From the IMG/VR virus record IMGVR_UViG_3300009506_000002, positions 32,001 to 96,000 of that record: DNA of 64,000 bases; one strand, 5' to 3'. A model generated the notes under the pieces. That model searched no databases. It was not told the origin of the DNA and saw only the letters and a list, made by a program, of their open reading frames with translations. The position numbers were made by a program, and so were the translations under genes. Below, piece by piece: positions 560-57,022 of the stretch. Source of the DNA: a virus. Each line of letters starts with the position of its first letter. Positions within the stretch are counted from its first letter, which is position 1.

Positions 560-588
560 ACTCTACACGATTTCATTCGGTTTGTCAA
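560..588 (-). promoter_or_regulatory. sigma70-type promoter, predicted leaderless
   Basis: TTGACA-17-TAGAGT-6nt-ATG(553). Confidence 0.75.
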
Positions 589-2309
589 GACTCCATCATC
601 ACCGAAAAGTCATCTACCAGTTTGTACTCGAGACAGCGCGCGAACTGATCGGTGATTGTGTTGTCATGAGTGATGACAAAGATGTTCGAATTGTCTGTTG
701 TCTCTTCAATGATGCGCATAAAGGCTTCTGTTCCTGCAGCGTCAAGCGAGCTCGAACCAATTTCGTCCAGAACCAGCAGGTTGCAGGAAGCAGAGTTGCG
801 CAAGCGTGCCAGCTCGCGCCAGGTGAAGAGTAGTGCCAAGTCAATTCGCATCTTCTGACCTTCAGAGAAGTTTGCATAGCTGAATTGGTCGCGGTGGCGT
901 GACTTCAAGGTCTCGTTGAAGCTCTCATCGAATGTGAACTCACAAGGGAACTCTAAGATTTCCAGATACTTACGGATCAGGCTATTGATTGTTGGCAGAT
1001 AGTTCCTGATGATCTGACTCTTGATGCCGCTGTCCTTAAGCAGTGATGAGATCAAGGAATAATACTGACCAGTATCTGCCAAGCCACCCTTGTCCTTGAT
1101 CATTTTCGACAAATCATCACCGAGGCCCTGTATCTCTTTGTCTACGTCGGAAGCGCTCTCGTTGGTGTTTTCATCCTGAATCTTCTTATTCGCAGTCTCC
1201 AGGGCTTTTACGTGCTCTGAGATGGTCCGAATACGAGTATTGTTGCTCGCAACCTTTCTTTCATTCTCAGAAATGTATTTTTGTACTTCTGAGATGTGAC
1301 CCAAGCGCGCTGACAGTGAAGACAGTCGGCTTTCAGCCATATCGATAGCCTTAGAGCACTCGTCAACCTTCTTCTGGCATGAATCAATTGATTCTGCCTT
1401 GAACTCTTTGTGGATTGGCTGGCTACACGTAGGGCACTCATCGTTCTCCTTGAAGAAGACGATCTCACGCTCATTCTTGTTCTGGTTCTTTTTGATGGTT
1501 GAGATAAGTAGCGATAGCTCGGATGATGTCTTGTTGACCTTTGTCTCGTCAGTCACTTCCTCAAGAGCTTCATCAATGGCAGCATGAATGATCTCACTCT
1601 CTTTCTCAATGGCTTCAATATCGGCACGATACTGGGCGATCTGGCGCTCGTTTTCAGCAACCTGCTCACCTTTGGCAGCGGCCAATTCGTCACGGTGCTG
1701 TTCCTTGAGTTCGATCTTGGTGCGCACCATCTTGATCTGGTTTTGCAGTTCGGAGTATTTGGTTGCCAGCGTTGCGCCGCGCGTCTTGAGGATTTGGTTC
1801 ATCAGTGAGAAGACCTGAATGTCTAGGATCTCCTCAATCACCTTGCGGCGATCATTGGTGCATAGGCGCATGAAAGGCACGAAGGTGGTTGAACCCAGGA
1901 AGACGATCTGCTTCATTGTGGTAGAGTTCATCTTCAGGATTGAGTTTTCAAGGTAGTCTTGGTAGTCCTTCAACCCTGCAGAGTTTTCCTTCAGAACACC
2001 ATCAATGAAGATGTCAAAGATGTTGGGCTTGATACCACGGCGCACCTTATATTTCTTCTTGTCGATGGTGAAGTCAAGCTCTACAAGACAGTTCTTCTGG
2101 TTGATGCTGTTCACAACCTGCGCCTGTTTCAGCTTACGATACGGCTTGCCATACAGAGCAAAATAAACCGCATCGATGATGCCAGCAGACTTGCCTGCGC
2201 CATTGTCTCCAATGATCAGTGTCGTGTTGGTCTTGTCTAACTGGATTTCAATGAAACGATTACCGGCTGATAAGAAATTCTTATACCTAACCTTGTTGAA
2301 TACGATCAT
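585..2309 (-). CDS. gp46: Recombination endonuclease ATPase subunit (Rad50/SbcC-like)
   Basis: Walker A GDNGAGKS, CPTC zinc hook in coiled coil, FSEGQ signature, LVLDE Walker B. Confidence 0.96.
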   Translation of the reverse strand: MIVFNKVRYKNFLSAGNRFIEIQLDKTNTTLIIGDNGAGKSAGIIDAVYFALYGKPYRKLKQAQVVNSINQKNCLVELDFTIDKKKYKVRRGIKPNIFDIFIDGVLKENSAGLKDYQDYLENSILKMNSTTMKQIVFLGSTTFVPFMRLCTNDRRKVIEEILDIQVFSLMNQILKTRGATLATKYSELQNQIKMVRTKIELKEQHRDELAAAKGEQVAENERQIAQYRADIEAIEKESEIIHAAIDEALEEVTDETKVNKTSSELSLLISTIKKNQNKNEREIVFFKENDECPTCSQPIHKEFKAESIDSCQKKVDECSKAIDMAESRLSSLSARLGHISEVQKYISENERKVASNNTRIRTISEHVKALETANKKIQDENTNESASDVDKEIQGLGDDLSKMIKDKGGLADTGQYYSLISSLLKDSGIKSQIIRNYLPTINSLIRKYLEILEFPCEFTFDESFNETLKSRHRDQFSYANFSEGQKMRIDLALLFTWRELARLRNSASCNLLVLDEIGSSSLDAAGTEAFMRIIEETTDNSNIFVITHDNTITDQFARCLEYKLVDDFSVMMES

Positions 2310-3383
2310 TTACTGGTCTCGTCCTAGCGCAACTGCTTCGGTGTAGAGCTCTTGTACGAGCTCTAGCATCTTATCTTCATTCAATTCCTCGTTTTCAGCA
2401 ATTGTTGAAACTGCTGCCTTCAGTACGGTCAAGGTGTCAAGTGCCTCAAAAGCCTCAACGTCTACGCCATCAACCAGCACAACATCGGACTCGACAATTG
2501 TGTAGTCGTGTGGCATTGCTGCCGCGATTTGGTCAAGGAACCAATCGTATTTCTTGGTATCCTTACGGTCGCGCACAATGACCTTGACGATTGCATCCTT
2601 CAGCTCTGTGAAGTCAAACTCGTCGTAGTCGACATCAGAGCAAAAGAATGCTTTGTGAAACATTCTATACGGATTCTCAACAAATGTCAAGTCTCCCGTT
2701 TCAGTGTCAAGGACATGGAAGCCGCGAGGGTCATCGTAGTCGCTCCAGGTGATTTCGTATGGCGTGCCAACGTAATCGATATTCTTCTGAGAAGATTTGG
2801 TGTGGTAGTGACCAGTGATAACCCTGTCGTAATGGCCGAACACGTTTGACTTGAGGCCACCATGTCCTGGGATGCCAGCGTACATATCGAAGCCCACAAT
2901 TTCAAAGTGGCCGACGCAGTAGTGGCTCTTGCTGTTCTTCATGAACTTGACAATCTCTTTCGAGTTGTACTTGTTGATCCATGGAATCATATCAATCGGG
3001 ACGCCATCAATGTCGATGGTTGTAGGCCCCGCGTCATGCACGTGGACGCAGTCACGCCACGCGAACAGCTCTTGCAGTGAGTTGATTTCGTTTGTGTAGC
3101 GATAGTAGATATCGTGATTGCCTGGGATGACGTGGAATTGCAAGCCATCAGCCAGCGTAGGCAGAACATCCATAAATCTGCGGTTGACTTCATGCAGCGT
3201 CTTGAAATTGACGCTCTTACGTCTGTCTATGAAGTCACCCGTCTGGATAACGTGGGTGATACCATGCTCTTTGATGTACGGGAAGACCACGCGCTCAAAG
3301 AACTTGAAGAAGTACTCTAGGAATACCTCAGAATCATTTCTCGCACCAAAATGGGTGTCGCCAATGATCACGACTTTAGCCAT
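2310..3383 (-). CDS. gp47: Recombination endonuclease nuclease subunit (Mre11/SbcD-like)
   Basis: GDTHFG, GDFID, GNHD, GHYH motifs; adjacent to gp46. Confidence 0.96.
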   Translation of the reverse strand: MAKVVIIGDTHFGARNDSEVFLEYFFKFFERVVFPYIKEHGITHVIQTGDFIDRRKSVNFKTLHEVNRRFMDVLPTLADGLQFHVIPGNHDIYYRYTNEINSLQELFAWRDCVHVHDAGPTTIDIDGVPIDMIPWINKYNSKEIVKFMKNSKSHYCVGHFEIVGFDMYAGIPGHGGLKSNVFGHYDRVITGHYHTKSSQKNIDYVGTPYEITWSDYDDPRGFHVLDTETGDLTFVENPYRMFHKAFFCSDVDYDEFDFTELKDAIVKVIVRDRKDTKKYDWFLDQIAAAMPHDYTIVESDVVLVDGVDVEAFEALDTLTVLKAAVSTIAENEELNEDKMLELVQELYTEAVALGRDQ

Positions 3384-3933
3384 CGCATACCTCGGTCAGA
3401 TCAACAGTGTCAGAGGTTGCCCTCTTCTTTCGTGGTGTTTGTTCCTCGTCCTTTTCATCCAAGTCGACTTCATAGAAGTCGCGCATGTAGTCAAGATATT
3501 GGTTGGAAAAATCGCAGTCATCATCGTGGGACTGGGTAGAAGCCTGCTGTAGCATTGCACCCGAGCGCTGCACGTAGCGCACCTTGGTGAAAAACAACTT
3601 CTTCTCTTTTTGGATACGGCGGATAAAAGCGAAGTAGCAAATCTGCGTGAAGTACCCGAACGGATTGTTGCTCTTGTCCGGGTCAAAGTTGTCAGCGTAC
3701 ATGACGCAATTCTCAATCGCGTCATCTACCATCTCATCCCTATAAGAATAGTTGATGAAATTAGGCTTGTATGAGAGTCGTTCGGCGATGAGCATGATTT
3801 TCTTGCCAATTGCGTCAGATAATCTTGGCTTTGGCTTACCAGCAGCTTCTGCCTCTTTCGCTAGGCGCTTGTATTCGACGAAATCAGAGAGGAACTCTTT
3901 GTTCGAAACGTAATGCGTTTTCTTCTTGCTCAT
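3376..3933 (-). CDS. gp55: Late-transcription sigma factor
   Basis: HYVSNKEF, NFINYSYRDEM, NPFGYFTQICYFAFIRRIQKEK; acidic C-tail; synteny. Confidence 0.95.
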   Translation of the reverse strand: MSKKKTHYVSNKEFLSDFVEYKRLAKEAEAAGKPKPRLSDAIGKKIMLIAERLSYKPNFINYSYRDEMVDDAIENCVMYADNFDPDKSNNPFGYFTQICYFAFIRRIQKEKKLFFTKVRYVQRSGAMLQQASTQSHDDDCDFSNQYLDYMRDFYEVDLDEKDEEQTPRKKRATSDTVDLTEVCDG

Positions 3934-3971
3934 GATTCTCCTAAATCATTGTATAGTACCTCACGGTGCAA

Positions 3972-4000
3972 ATTGTACAACATATTGGGGCACCTGTCAA
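3972..4000 (-). promoter_or_regulatory. sigma70-type promoter for gp55-47-46
   Basis: TTGACA-17-TACAAT; AGGAG before ATG 3933. Confidence 0.8.
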
Positions 4001-4062
4001 GTCATATTTTTTCCTTATACCTAATTGCCCTTCCTATAAGAAATTGTTATGGTTATTTGGAC

Positions 4063-4091
4063 TTGACACGCGCTAAATATTCATGTATCAT
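4063..4091 (+). promoter_or_regulatory. sigma70-type promoter firing into the non-coding region
   Basis: TTGACA-17-TATCAT, divergent from the gp55 promoter. Confidence 0.7.
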
Positions 4092-4097
4092 TACAAC

Positions 4098-4595
4098 CTT
4101 GAAGAACACATCCATGATCTTGACGGTTATCTTTCAGGACCGATCATGGCAACAACTGAGAGCTCTCTGATCAGTCAAACGTGATGAGACCGCAACCATT
4201 TGACCCCTTGGTTGAATGCGAGCGCTTAATGAAGTCCTTGTGTTGGGACTAGAGGTTAAGCGGCAGCCAATATAAGTATCGCACGAAGTTTGGTTAGTCG
4301 TCAAAAAATGCCCTTGCCTAAGTCTTTTGATATGGTGAGGGATCGGCCGTGGGATTGAGGAAACAAAAAGTCACATCGTAGTTGAACGCCAGCTATGATC
4401 CCAGATGACGGAATGGCAATCGGTAATTCGTAAGCCGATACTGTCACGTCTATGTTCAATCAACAATTACAAAAAGCACCACGAGCTTCGAAGAAGCGAG
4501 ACCTGAGCAAAGCGAAGGTTAGATGGTTCACCACAATGCAAACCATTCAGGTTTGCTCCGCAAACCAGCTCGCTTCGCTCGCTACGCTCTCCCTC
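4098..4595 (+). ncRNA. Candidate large structured non-coding RNA (family unknown)
   Basis: No credible ORF; about nine consecutive stem-loops with G-U pairs favouring the + strand; own promoter. Confidence 0.55.
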
Positions 4596-4606
4596 TGCGC
4601 ACATTT

Positions 4607-6103
4607 CTATATTTTGATTCGCTTCAAAGAGAATTCAAACTGCTCTCTGTTGTAGTAGTCAACGCGCACCAAGAAGTGCTCCATCGCATAGTTCTTATGT
4701 CTCTTCCAAGTCAAATCATCAGCAATATCGTACAGGATGAATGAATCCTTTTCTGAATTGATTCTCAAGCCGCGGCCAATCGACTGGAGCGTGCGGATTT
4801 TTGACTTCGATGGTGATGCAAAGATGCCCCAGTGCAGGTTCTTGATTGAAACGCCAGTAGAGAACGTTCCAAACGAAGCTACAATGATCGAGTCCTTTTC
4901 CTTTTCGACCCAATGACGGATTTGTTCGCGCTGGTCAGCAGGTACTGAACCGTCAACGAAGTGAACAGTGCGGTTAGGGTCAATATCTTTGATCCGCTTG
5001 TAGATATCCTTACCATGCTCGATGTTGTTGAACAGGATCAGTCCGTTCTGAGTTTGAGCCAGAGCCAGTTTCGCAATGAAGTCTGTTCGACGCGGGTGTT
5101 TGATCAGCCACTTAACCTCATCTTGATACTTGGCCTTCTTCATGAACTGCTTTTCCTCATCCGTGTAGATGAGAGACAGCGCCTTGATATTCAAACGCGC
5201 TACCTTCTTTCTGTCCATCAATTCCTTGGTTGTGATGGTTCTCTTGACAGGGCCGAGCAATCCCTCGATCACAAGGCGAGAGGTCTTTGAATCGTCAAGC
5301 GTACCAGTGAGTCCGATCTTATAAGGGCATTCAGTCATCTTCTCACAGATTCCGCGCAGCGATTCAGATGTTGCCAAGTGAACCTCGTCAATCATCAGGG
5401 TGCCGAACTTCTCAAAGTAGCCCTTGTGCTTACGGAAAATAGACTGCCATGTTGAAACGTAGATACCGCACTCAGAATCCTTTTCGCGGCCACCCATGAT
5501 CATGTGAACCTCGTCATCTGCTGTCCAGTGGACGTGAGATGAGTAGTCCGCCATGTCACCTGCCATCTGCGCAACCAGTCCGGTTGTTGGCACGACGACA
5601 AGTACCTTTTTGCCTGGGCGAGTGAGACGCAGCCAGCGCGCCAGCGCATAGATCATCAGAGACTTACCCGAAGAAGTAGGAGACAGCAAGATGCATCGCT
5701 TGTATTTGAGCGCGCACCAGATGCCGAAGAGCTGGTAGTCATGTGCCTCAATCTTTTCGCCATTTGAGTGGACGTTGAGAGTTTCAAGGAACTTGACCAC
5801 ATCCTCAGGCTTGACGTTTGTTTGTGGCATAACGTCATCATCGATGTGGATGCTGTATTTGTGTTGCTCCGCGAACTGCTTGACGTATGAAGTCAATCCA
5901 GAGTAGAGCTCGCGATTGCGAATTGAGAACAGGTGGATCTTACCATCCCACATCTTGTTCTTGAACTTTGGCATGAAGCGGTAGCCAGGAACGAAGAATG
6001 TGAAGAACTCGTCCAGTGAGAATGCAATGTGTAGCTCGCACTCAATCCAAACGTAGACGTCGTCAACCCTATGTACGGTGATATCTGCTTTTCTTTCAGC
6101 CAT
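4607..6103 (-). CDS. uvsW: SF2 RNA-DNA/DNA helicase
   Basis: SPTSSGKS, IDEVH, QSIGRGLR; N-terminal WDGKIHLF. Confidence 0.95.
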   Translation of the reverse strand: MAERKADITVHRVDDVYVWIECELHIAFSLDEFFTFFVPGYRFMPKFKNKMWDGKIHLFSIRNRELYSGLTSYVKQFAEQHKYSIHIDDDVMPQTNVKPEDVVKFLETLNVHSNGEKIEAHDYQLFGIWCALKYKRCILLSPTSSGKSLMIYALARWLRLTRPGKKVLVVVPTTGLVAQMAGDMADYSSHVHWTADDEVHMIMGGREKDSECGIYVSTWQSIFRKHKGYFEKFGTLMIDEVHLATSESLRGICEKMTECPYKIGLTGTLDDSKTSRLVIEGLLGPVKRTITTKELMDRKKVARLNIKALSLIYTDEEKQFMKKAKYQDEVKWLIKHPRRTDFIAKLALAQTQNGLILFNNIEHGKDIYKRIKDIDPNRTVHFVDGSVPADQREQIRHWVEKEKDSIIVASFGTFSTGVSIKNLHWGIFASPSKSKIRTLQSIGRGLRINSEKDSFILYDIADDLTWKRHKNYAMEHFLVRVDYYNREQFEFSLKRIKI

Positions 6104-6240: not shown

Positions 6241-6642
6241 TTAGTAGGCTCCTGCTTGGAACTTGCGCCATTCGATGGCGTCGCGTATGTTGAATGAAAG
6301 ACCTGAGATGATCTTCAGTACAGTTTCGAGGTATTCAGCTTTGCGCTTTTCGTAGTCGAGTTTCATGCGTGACTCTTGGAGCTCTCCGTCTCCGTCAATC
6401 ATAATCTCGATCTCACCACGATTCTTGAAGATGACGTTATGATCATTTCGATAGTGAAGGAATTTCTGGCGATATATGAGGTCGTAGTCGCCCTTGAGTT
6501 TCGCGCATTTCAGTTGTGACTTGTGCAGCAGGTCAAGGTACTTGACATACAGCATAGGGATATTGACCGCAGTACGATCGAGATTTGCTTCATCGATCTT
6601 TACGTCACGCGCTACTTGTTTCTTAAGGTCTTCTAGAGTCAT
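6241..6642 (-). CDS. uvsY: Recombination mediator protein
   Basis: 133 aa helical protein ending FNIRDAIEWRKFQAG; next to uvsW. Confidence 0.9.
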   Translation of the reverse strand: MTLEDLKKQVARDVKIDEANLDRTAVNIPMLYVKYLDLLHKSQLKCAKLKGDYDLIYRQKFLHYRNDHNVIFKNRGEIEIMIDGDGELQESRMKLDYEKRKAEYLETVLKIISGLSFNIRDAIEWRKFQAGAY

Positions 6643-7206: not shown

Positions 7207-8478
7207 TTAAACGCCAGTTACCAGGAAGTCACGGTAGTAGTCGTTCTGACCAGCAATACCTGATACGAATGGGTTGTATGCGATTGCATAACGGGTCTTC
7301 ATACCGATACGTGGCTGGAAGTCTTCCTCGCCGACGGCCTTCATCATCTGCAGAGGTACGTATGGGCAGTAGAACATACCAGCGTCGTAGACGTTAGCGC
7401 CCTTGTAACCCACAGTCACGAAGTCTGCAGCAGCATACGGATCGACGTACACCTTGAATCGACCACCCAGGATACCCGCGAAGGTTGCTCCTACGAAGTC
7501 ACTGTTCAGAGTGCCGCTGATTGCAGCGGTGTCGAGCTTGGTAGCCTGCTCGAGTGCAGCCATGACGATTGGCGAACATACAATGAAGTTACCAACACCA
7601 CGGCGGGTAGTGGTAGCAATCAAAGATGCTTCACGGACGATCTGCATGTACAGGTTCTTGTACTTTTCAATCTCCCAACGACCATCAGTGTCGTCGTTTG
7701 CGCCACCGGTCATGTCGAATGTACCAGCTACGTTGGTGTTCTGCGCGCCAGTACGAGCCTGAGAACGCATGGTTGCGATGATTTCACGGTTGATTTCACC
7801 CACAACTTCGGTTGACAGGATGTTTGCCAGTTCGGCTTCTGCATCCATACCGTGGATTGCCTTCAGGTCCTGGGCCAGTTCAATGGTGTACTTAGCCTTC
7901 AGAGCACGAGTGCCAGCTTCGACTGACTTCTTATCGATGCTGAATGACATCTCAGCCCATGGGTTGGTCTGAGCGATGTTGGTTACATCGGTGAAGGCAG
8001 TACGCGCGGTAGTGCCATCAGTTGTACCGTCACCTTGGATGTCAACGCCAAGTGCTTCACCTGCCGCAGTTGTCATTGCTGCGCCTGCGCCGTTACCAGA
8101 GTGGTTGACGTCTGGTGCCGAAGTACCGAACGCTTCTGCGCCAGTCTGTGGGTCGCCAGTGTAGCGAGCACGCATTGCAAAGATGAGGCCGGTTGGGCCG
8201 CTCATTGGCTGAACACCGACGATGTCATGCGCAATCAGCGATGGCATGGTACGGCGAACCATTGAGATCAGGATAGGGTCAAAGCCCTGTCCGCCACCAG
8301 AAACCATGTTGCCGGTGTTTACGCCCTCTTCAAGGGCAGCTTTTTCTGTGTTTTCAAGCAGACGGATGGTTGTGTTTCGAACGTCGCGGTTCTTGATCTC
8401 ATCAACGCCTTCAGCAGTGATGACAGGTTCCCACTTCTGCTTTACTTCTTCAGACAATAGTGGCTGATTAGTAGTCAT
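7207..8478 (-). CDS. gp23: Major capsid protein
   Basis: MVRRTMPSLIAHDIVGVQPMSGPTGLIFAMR, ELAQDLKAIHG, FYCPYVPL, FQPRIGMKTRY. Confidence 0.98.
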   Translation of the reverse strand: MTTNQPLLSEEVKQKWEPVITAEGVDEIKNRDVRNTTIRLLENTEKAALEEGVNTGNMVSGGGQGFDPILISMVRRTMPSLIAHDIVGVQPMSGPTGLIFAMRARYTGDPQTGAEAFGTSAPDVNHSGNGAGAAMTTAAGEALGVDIQGDGTTDGTTARTAFTDVTNIAQTNPWAEMSFSIDKKSVEAGTRALKAKYTIELAQDLKAIHGMDAEAELANILSTEVVGEINREIIATMRSQARTGAQNTNVAGTFDMTGGANDDTDGRWEIEKYKNLYMQIVREASLIATTTRRGVGNFIVCSPIVMAALEQATKLDTAAISGTLNSDFVGATFAGILGGRFKVYVDPYAAADFVTVGYKGANVYDAGMFYCPYVPLQMMKAVGEEDFQPRIGMKTRYAIAYNPFVSGIAGQNDYYRDFLVTGV

Positions 8479-56432: not shown

Positions 56433-56735
56433 TTATTCGTCGTAGATGAACAGAACATCATCTTCAGTGATGACGGTACACTCCTTGTCGTCCCACGGTC
56501 CTGTCTTGCCAGCGTAGCCAGTGAACAGGATCCGGTCACCAACCTTGACAGACATCTCCTTGCGGGTAGTGCCATCAGGAAGGAAAGCGCCCGGGCCAAC
56601 TGCTACGATGGTGCCGGACTTTGGTGGATGCTCATGCTTCGGGGTATCCGGAAGGATGATACCGCCATCAGAGACGGTCTGCACCGGATCGAGAATCAGA
56701 GCAATACGGTCGAGGATGGGTCTTACGCGCGCCAT
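56433..56735 (-). CDS. groES: Co-chaperonin GroES (bacterial-like cpn10)
   Basis: RPILDRI, GGIILPD, GTIVAVGPG, VKVGDRILF. Confidence 0.92.
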   Translation of the reverse strand: MARVRPILDRIALILDPVQTVSDGGIILPDTPKHEHPPKSGTIVAVGPGAFLPDGTTRKEMSVKVGDRILFTGYAGKTGPWDDKECTVITEDDVLFIYDE

Positions 56736-57022
56736 CAGACAGTAAGTACCTTACCGAAATGCTTGGCATAGGCGTCTTCGATGAACTTCATCTCATTGAT
56801 GATCGTTGCATGGAACATCACCTGCGCAGACTTGAGCGGCAGGATGCGGGTTTCGCCCTTGGTCAGGTTGAAGTATGGCGCATAAGGAACCAGCTCCATT
56901 CCGCCCTTGCCATCAGGCATGCCGACAACCGGGTTCTCGATGACTACCTGTTCAGCAGTCTCTTCGACCAGGTACCCGACGAACTCTTCGCCGGTGATCA
57001 GTTTGAAAATTCGAATACTCAT
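56735..57022 (-). CDS. Sm-like fold protein
   Basis: IFKLITGEEFVG..VIENP..PYAPY pattern. Confidence 0.6.
   Translation of the reverse strand: MSIRIFKLITGEEFVGYLVEETAEQVVIENPVVGMPDGKGGMELVPYAPYFNLTKGETRILPLKSAQVMFHATIINEMKFIEDAYAKHFGKVLTV

Follow-up and report, generated by a model that had tools for sequence, protein, structure and literature searches.

The window, a 64,000-nucleotide stretch that comprises bases 32001 to 96000 of a 142,377-bp IMG/VR virus contig with terminal repeats, carries a T4-like gene cluster in which the gp55-like and uvsW genes are separated by a gap of 673 nt (3934-4606). This gap is the sole long ORF-free stretch of the window, as the preliminary description had noted: when ORFs of 70 aa or more are counted on both strands, the 64 kb contain a single internal stretch of at least 250 nt without any, at 4171-4522. 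Its G+C content is 44%, against 49% for the genome. The surrounding genes are all encoded on the minus strand:

585-2309, minus strand: gp46-like gene (gene context)
2310-3383, minus strand: gp47-like gene (gene context)
3376-3933, minus strand: gp55-like late sigma factor gene, flank; named by synteny, thousands of homologs adjoining gp47/gp46
4607-6103, minus strand: flanking uvsW helicase gene, which runs convergently to the RNA gene described below; Pfam UvsW_N (5.9e-19), ResIII, DEAD and Helicase_C
6241-6642, minus strand: uvsY (gene context)
7207-8478, minus strand: gp23 (gene context)

The placement between gp55 and uvsW proposed earlier holds for both flanks, uvsW being assigned by Pfam and gp55 by synteny (the ORF at 3376-3933 has no Pfam match). 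With gp47 and gp46 on one side of the gap and uvsY and gp23 on the other, the gene order gp46-gp47-gp55-uvsW-uvsY-gp23 is the one common to marine T4-like phages. The nearest cultured phages are Methylophilales phage Melnitz and Pelagibacter phage HTVC008M, with capsid identity below 50%. The one sequencing run found to contain this DNA is a marine-sediment metagenome, probably the source sample, and no RNA run turned up with it; the phage is uncultured, T4-like and from marine sediment.

Both of two divergent, near-consensus sigma-70 promoters are located at the gp55 end of the gap, and the plus-strand one is directed into it:

4000->3972, minus strand: sigma-70-like promoter for gp55/gp47/gp46, divergent from the RNA promoter; TTGACA-17-TACAAT, 11/12
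4063-4091, plus strand: sigma-70-like promoter of the RNA gene; TTGACA-17-TATCAT, 11/12, predicted start near 4098

The divergent gp55 promoter is present in most relatives. The plus-strand promoter, which the preliminary description had already assigned to the element, is retained with the same orientation and 10-12 of 12 matches, 50-90 nt upstream of a hairpin with an invariant loop, in eight of the nine related loci of the two classes defined below; the ninth (L166) has a weaker 9/12 match, found by eye.

The closest gp55 and uvsW relatives in a large protein collection define one small clade of uncultured T4-like phages. In the contigs of this clade the uvsW-gp55 gap is gene-free and 540-1436 nt long, and the loci split into two classes. 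Class A comprises the window and five relatives (L163, L166, L193, L194 and L196), whose contigs carry related sequence in the same gap (blastn E 5e-24 to 3e-9; nhmmer E 1e-25 to 1e-89). Sequence conservation ceases past the 3' strand of the helix that closes the RNA, which sets the conserved RNA at ∼360 nt (4098-4460) rather than the ∼500 nt first estimated. The start of this helix lies 8-26 nt past the -10 box in all six class A sequences, by our reading of the alignment and the promoters, and so fits a promoter-set 5' end. Both the class A RNA and the 3' module described below are single-copy in the genome.

Comparative analysis supports a structured RNA. RNAalifold, applied to the six-sequence alignment A5, predicts 56 pairs in 10 helices. 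Of the 333 cells at these pairs, 89.5% are paired, versus 76.0% in shuffles and 33-43% when the alignment is slid; 30 of the 56 pairs are changed on both sides, versus 18.2 in shuffles and at most 12 when slid, and none of 500 shuffles matches any of five covariation measures, in a comparison of six sequences of which two are close to each other, with shuffles that ignore relatedness and a structure derived from the same alignment. Covariation among relatives' gp55-uvsW gaps, which the preliminary description had proposed as a check, is present. No covarying pseudoknot or other non-nested helix was found in class A by our own column-pair scan.

The same alignment discriminates between strands. 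G-U cells in class A pairs number 59 on the plus strand versus 5 on the minus strand, indicating that the RNA is the plus strand, opposite to the flanking genes; the earlier argument from G-U pairs, made on a single sequence, reached the same strand. Canonical cells fall from 298 to 244 (54 lost) on the minus strand. Folding of 4090-4600 against dinucleotide shuffles gives z -2.93 on the plus strand and -0.24 on the minus strand, so the element does fold better than shuffled controls, and the core of the window alone gives -2.2 and 0.0, respectively. Across classes A and B the promoter strand reaches z -2.2 to -4.0 in all eight full RNAs, with the other strand weaker in seven. Finally, tblastx between class A cores yields short matches on both strands with the frame shifting between segments, and by this sequence criterion the core reads as not coding. 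Together, the covariation, the asymmetry in G-U and canonical cells, the strand-specific folding and the tblastx pattern mark the feature as a predicted RNA from the plus strand of the window. Its parts are as follows (all plus strand):

4098-4460: conserved core, class A structured RNA, ∼360 nt; nhmmer and CM matches in L163, L166, L193, L194 and L196, with covariation
∼4099-4108 with 4453-4459: P1 (helix 1), closes the RNA ends; 4 of 7 pairs change on both sides
4112-4149: P1a, window-specific variable hairpin; 8-bp perfect stem, unaligned in relatives
4164-4189: P2 hairpin; 8-nt loop AGUCAAAC at 4173-4180, stem pairs covary (CG 3 / GC 2)
4197-4218: P3 hairpin (helix 3); 5 of 8 pairs change on both sides
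4224-4261: P4 with inner hairpin P4a (4233-4250) (helices 4 and 5); 97-100% paired, 7 of 9 pairs change on both sides
4266-4295: hairpin P4b, which L166 lacks; our own column-pair scan shows covariation in 4 of its 5 pairs
4311-4341: P5 hairpin with an 11-nt GAAA-tetraloop receptor; CCUAAG (4317-4322) opposite UAUGG (4331-4335)
4347-4357 with 4396-4411: P6 (helices 7 and 8; whole P6/P6a 4347-4411)
∼4375-4399: P6a, variable hairpin within P6
4359-4364: GNRA-type element; GAAA in five class A sequences, GCGA in L166
4414-4446: P7 hairpin (helices 9 and 10); 4 of 5 distal pairs change on both sides
4461-4492: A-rich unconserved linker, 32 nt; A-rich linkers of relatives are 30-70 nt

Several of the stems picked out from the single sequence recur in this model. 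The stem at 4223-4262 (P4/P4a) and ATCGGT/GCCGAT (P7) are kept in relatives with compensatory changes, and CCCTTGCC/GGTGAGGG (P5) is likewise kept. The suspected long-range pairing of the 5' and 3' parts corresponds to P1, which is kept with compensatory changes and pairs well in relatives in the aligned register, whereas the window itself pairs only in a shifted register. The stem at 4112-4149 exists as the window-specific P1a, and CGTAGTTG/CAGCTATG also exists; both occupy variable positions. Two short pairings do not survive the comparison: CGCA/TGCG is not conserved, and neither is ACTGA/TCAGT, which moreover competes with the covarying P2 stem.

Two elements stand out for their invariance. 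The P2 loop AGUCAAAC is identical in five of the six class A RNAs and in the class B loci L164 and L192, with GUCAAAA variants in L196 (class A) and L002 (class B), and an invariant string, GAAUGGCA (4411-4418), runs into P7. The idea that the P2 loop recognizes a target in the phage genome was dropped: its complement is ∼3-fold enriched there, yet the sites read as in-frame Phe-Asp codons.

The 11-nt receptor in P5 occurs in its helical context in the window, L193, L194 and L196 (four of six class A sequences) and in both full class B sequences (L002 and L164), at a chance rate of 1.5-2% per sequence; in the window it is flanked by Watson-Crick pairs on both sides (4311-4316/4336-4341 and 4323-4324/4329-4330). 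The sole GAAA common to class A lies at 4360-4363, with one covarying closing pair (G-C to C-G). The receptor is found only alongside GAAA, and the lone GCGA sequence (L166) is without it. Tetraloop-receptor docking pairs are a mark of compact tertiary folds.

Class B consists of L002 (with an identical stretch in L001), L164 (with an identical stretch in L165) and L192. Its position in the gap and promoter orientation are as in class A. The preliminary description had treated the locus as having one RNA, and class A is indeed found in five relatives; other close relatives, in contrast, carry this alternative architecture, including L002, which has the most similar gp55 (69%) and yet is class B. 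On the gp55 tree, too weakly resolved to show an exchange of the classes, two changes of class label are needed, the well-supported branches being compatible with one. In the two full class B sequences each of the 61 predicted pairs is canonical and 19 of them differ at both positions; G-U cells number 23 versus 0 on the other strand. Classes A and B have in common the invariant-loop hairpin, the receptor helix, the GAAA element and the order of modules; in class B the GAAA caps a plain hairpin with a covarying stem. Primary sequence and models do not bridge the classes: nhmmer with class A finds no match in class B, the class A 3'-domain CM finds none either, and the 5'-domain CM reaches at best 13 bits (E ∼0.09), in L192 only.

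L197 may represent a third form. Its two divergent promoters are perfect, and its 300-nt leader (z -2.5) is a different one that bears a similar loop; the same repeat arrays come next, and then a co-oriented PIF1-like helicase gene with a ribosome-binding site. No homology of this leader to class A or class B is detectable. In this contig the gene caller gives uvsW as two ORFs of 117 and 322 aa (L197:1985-3469), the PIF1-like helicase gene lies between uvsW and gp55 (L197:3568-4770), and immediately before gp55 there is a tRNA gene that has a perfect promoter to itself (L197:5776-5847).

Beyond the linker lies an element separate from the core:

4493-4590, no strand assigned: inverted-repeat hairpin module with AGCGNAGCGA motifs in both orientations

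The stem that the preliminary description had placed at 4493-4576 exists, as part of this module rather than of the conserved RNA; the predicted fold of 4493-4576 is a cloverleaf with an 8-bp closing stem. The AGCGNAGCGA motif, which contains a GCGNAGC mini-hairpin, is concentrated in the locus (window, L166, L194, L196 and L197), with ∼2 occurrences expected by chance in 1.23 Mb of loci. L196 has six nested copies, whose forward and reverse members can pair over 13-23 bp. GCGNAGC-type mini-hairpins are reported as frequent at phage replication initiation sites (2026 review, PMC13037366). The module may terminate or process transcripts from both directions, may belong to the RNA as its 3' domain, or may be part of an origin. 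In L193:277-600 and L196:4200-4600 the space between the RNA core and uvsW holds direct repeats 65-70 nt in length, each with AGCGNAGCGA in a hairpin loop. Downstream of the class B RNA of L002 (3090-3170, read on the minus strand) there are three iteron-like direct repeats, each ∼14 nt long and set at a spacing of 25-28 nt, and after them an A-rich tract. L163 and L195 come from the same Logan sample: one contig stops 19 nt past uvsW and the other begins inside the hairpin array, probably an assembly break at the repeat module.

None of the known RNA families searched accounts for the gap. Rfam 15 CMs give nothing inside it at E up to 10 (including RNase P, group I and II introns, tmRNA, 6S, GOLLD, ROOL, OLE, HEARO, T-box and riboswitches), the whole window has no match at gathering score, and L002 and seven homolog loci have none at permissive thresholds. 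ARAGORN finds 0 tRNA or tmRNA genes in 3800-4800, neither the gap nor two homolog RNAs match any of 50,697 phage records by blastn, and literature searches turned up no report of an RNA at the uvsW-gp55 position. Pattern scans of IMG/VR gave only chance matches or already known contigs, a pattern scan of genome contigs gave four chance matches (the best, L201, inside a helicase ORF), and a metagenome scan with gp55 found no close relatives. The earlier remark that the element is not recognizable as tRNA, tmRNA, RNase P or intron agrees with these Rfam and ARAGORN searches. A tRNA or tmRNA identity is rejected on the 0 ARAGORN genes and on the genome's own copies elsewhere: a full tmRNA (143 bits, L205:465-805, minus strand) and ∼37 tRNA genes in a single array across the contig ends (L204/L205; genome 124000-142377 and 1-20000), a region in which the RNase P and GOLLD models give nothing at gathering score. 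A group I intron identity was also rejected: the element sits in an intergenic gap on the strand opposite to its neighbours, is preceded by a promoter of its own, and shows neither a covarying non-nested helix nor a model match. A likeness by eye of short strings to RNase P CR-I/CR-V and to the group I core was dropped, as neither models nor pairing support it.

Comparison with known systems places the RNA among several without matching any. GOLLD, ROOL and OLE are large, ornate RNAs of bacteria and phages whose function is unknown (PMC12286853). The class A RNA resembles them as a large, multi-helix, covarying ncRNA that has a promoter to itself and lacks a partner gene next to it, and resembles many GOLLD and ROOL copies in being phage-encoded; unlike them it is shorter (∼360 nt), has no CM match and lies outside the tRNA array. 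With group I introns and RNase P RNA it shares a helix that closes the ends, many helices linked by junctions and an 11-nt receptor with a putative GAAA tetraloop partner, whereas it has no model match, interrupts no gene and yielded no P3-P7 or P4 pseudoknot; its RNase P-like strings are ∼50 nt apart, while those of RNase P are at opposite ends of the RNA. T4 ori(uvsY)/ori(34) and ColE1 RNA II offer another parallel, a promoter-driven untranslated transcript of a few hundred nt (predicted here) near uvsW/uvsY, followed by repeats or hairpins. However, a promoter and an A+T-rich element are all that T4 origins require, whereas here the structure is the conserved part, and there is no conserved antisense partner like the RNA I of ColE1. 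The heptamer in both orientations at 4493-4590 and in the arrays of relatives recalls the GCGNAGC sites of G4-type phage origins and plasmid ssi signals (PMC13037366); those sites occur singly, on plasmids or genomes that are single-stranded, in contrast to nested inverted repeats on a double-stranded T4-like genome.

The covariation in six sequences, the promoter kept in its orientation, the strand-specific folding and G-U pairs and the empty Rfam and ARAGORN searches support, at the sequence level, the earlier proposal of a new phage ncRNA: a structured plus-strand candidate with its own promoter, apparently of a family not described before (relative to Rfam 15). For its role, the reading that we lean towards, and hold to be somewhat better than an even bet, is that 4098-4460 (plus strand) is a stand-alone gene for a compactly folded, trans-acting ncRNA of ∼360 nt from an undescribed family. 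Host sigma-70 RNA polymerase would transcribe the RNA early in infection from 4063-4091, convergently with uvsW. Judging from the comparison of relatives, the transcript would fold with P1 joining its ends and at least 10 helices radiating from junctions, and the GNRA-type element near 4360 may dock into the 11-nt receptor of P5. The RNA would then act in trans, either by binding proteins, as their scaffold or decoy, or by catalysis as a ribozyme; its likely working surface would be the 8-nt loop of P2 together with the junction strings, all of them invariant. The module at 4493-4590 would probably set or protect the 3' ends of both convergent transcripts. Several observations weigh against this stand-alone role. 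The six class A sequences, two of them close, come from one small clade, and the shuffles ignore relatedness; the core is followed by no terminator, so read-through is possible; the promoter, leader and array that precede a co-oriented PIF1-like gene in L197 hint at a cis-acting leader; and the family is linked to no partner protein or target.

A bolder version of the trans-acting RNA, which we regard as a long shot worth keeping in sight, is that it represents a tertiary-structured class (possibly a ribozyme or self-assembling) with at least two interchangeable architectures built on the same loop and receptor, which together with the mini-hairpin array would form a new RNA-dependent replication or control element in T4-like phages. 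To our knowledge, it is rare for a large RNA to combine many covarying helices with tertiary docking motifs, and the few examples of known function are mostly ribozymes, RNP cores or, recently, self-assembling cages. We know of no such RNA in T4-like phages, despite decades of study. The RNA occupies a fixed place beside genes that switch replication and transcription modes, and the presence of two architectures with one invariant loop at one locus narrows the experimental target. If the RNA is tied to the mini-hairpin array, replication start in non-enterobacterial T4-like phages becomes directly testable.

The best-surviving alternative, unlikely in our estimate, is a replication origin in which a folded transcript like ColE1 RNA II forms a persistent hybrid in the repeat module, is made into a leading-strand primer by phage RNase H and is later removed by UvsW. 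The precedent is T4 itself, where oriF and oriG consist of a promoter and a downstream R-loop-forming element, UvsW unwinds the R-loop, and oriE has an early promoter and iterons (PMC3016281). The promoter at 4063-4091 directs transcription into the element as oriF and oriG require, here as a sigma-70/early-type rather than a MotA-type promoter. Inverted and direct repeat arrays lie downstream of the core in every relative, the GCGNAGC mini-hairpin (PMC13037366) forms part of their motif, in L002 an A-rich tract comes after three direct repeats, and helicase genes flank the arrays (uvsW here, PIF1-like in L197). On composition the picture is mixed: the gap has 44% G+C (genome 49%), with the 32-nt linker at 4461-4492 as its only A-rich part, and the module after the core consists of G+C-rich hairpins and not of an A+T-rich unwinding element. 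GC skew has no turning point at the locus, and the neighbouring genes all run in one direction, while T4 origins lie at strand switches. Ten covarying helices and a tetraloop receptor would go unexplained, because R-loop formation in T4 needs no specific RNA sequence or structure and T4 origins amount to a promoter with an A+T-rich element (PMC3016281); an origin could nevertheless apply to the repeat module.

Ranking just behind the origin, and equally in the realm of the doubtful, is a cis-acting leader or antisense transcript, whose fold would control early transcription through the module; read-through would silence uvsW until late and, in L197, express the PIF1-like helicase. The RNA gene is convergent with uvsW, and since no intrinsic terminator was found after the core, the RNA may continue into the hairpin module and antisense to uvsW, a gene that in T4 is expressed late only (PMC3016281). 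The arrangement in L197, with promoter, leader, array and then a co-oriented helicase gene with a ribosome-binding site, hints at such a leader. Against this, nothing coding lies downstream on the RNA strand in eight of nine loci, the L197 leader has no detectable homology to class A or B, searches with the riboswitch, T-box and antiterminator families give no match, and antisense control requires no 360-nt tertiary fold.

That the element is what is left of a mobile ribozyme, or an unusual version of one (for instance a group I-like intron that lacks a host gene), in a hyperplastic region appears very improbable. Group I introns and RNase P typically have a tetraloop with an 11-nt receptor and a helix that closes the ends, some short strings look like the group I core (by eye only), and the locus of relatives takes up a 130-aa ORF, HNH genes or a helicase gene. 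Nevertheless, group I, group II and RNase P models find no match at E up to 10 in the window and eight relatives, no gene is interrupted, the element has its own conserved promoter, and the scan revealed no covarying pseudoknot.

In ∼45 distant relatives (gp55 40-57% identical), an ORF of 125-147 aa directly follows uvsW, on the same strand as uvsW and gp55. A profile of this ORF has no match in the gap of the window, and a homologous 95-aa ORF (E 1.5e-13) lies ∼52 kb off, at 56735-57022 (minus strand); the gap is thus not a decayed copy of this gene. The least probable explanation of all, that there is no functional RNA and the conservation reflects DNA-level signals or a decaying minus-strand gene, could invoke that ORF at the same place and the stop-free minus-strand frames of 58-108 codons in all six cores, but these frames are not kept between relatives, the ORF profile finds nothing in the gap and its homolog is elsewhere in the genome, and neither compensatory changes nor a 59:5 G-U asymmetry is expected from DNA signals. 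The uvsW-gp55 junction behaves as a hot spot for varied cargo, since L198 carries an HNH endonuclease gene and a DUF7338 gene there, after uvsW (L198:2875-3947).
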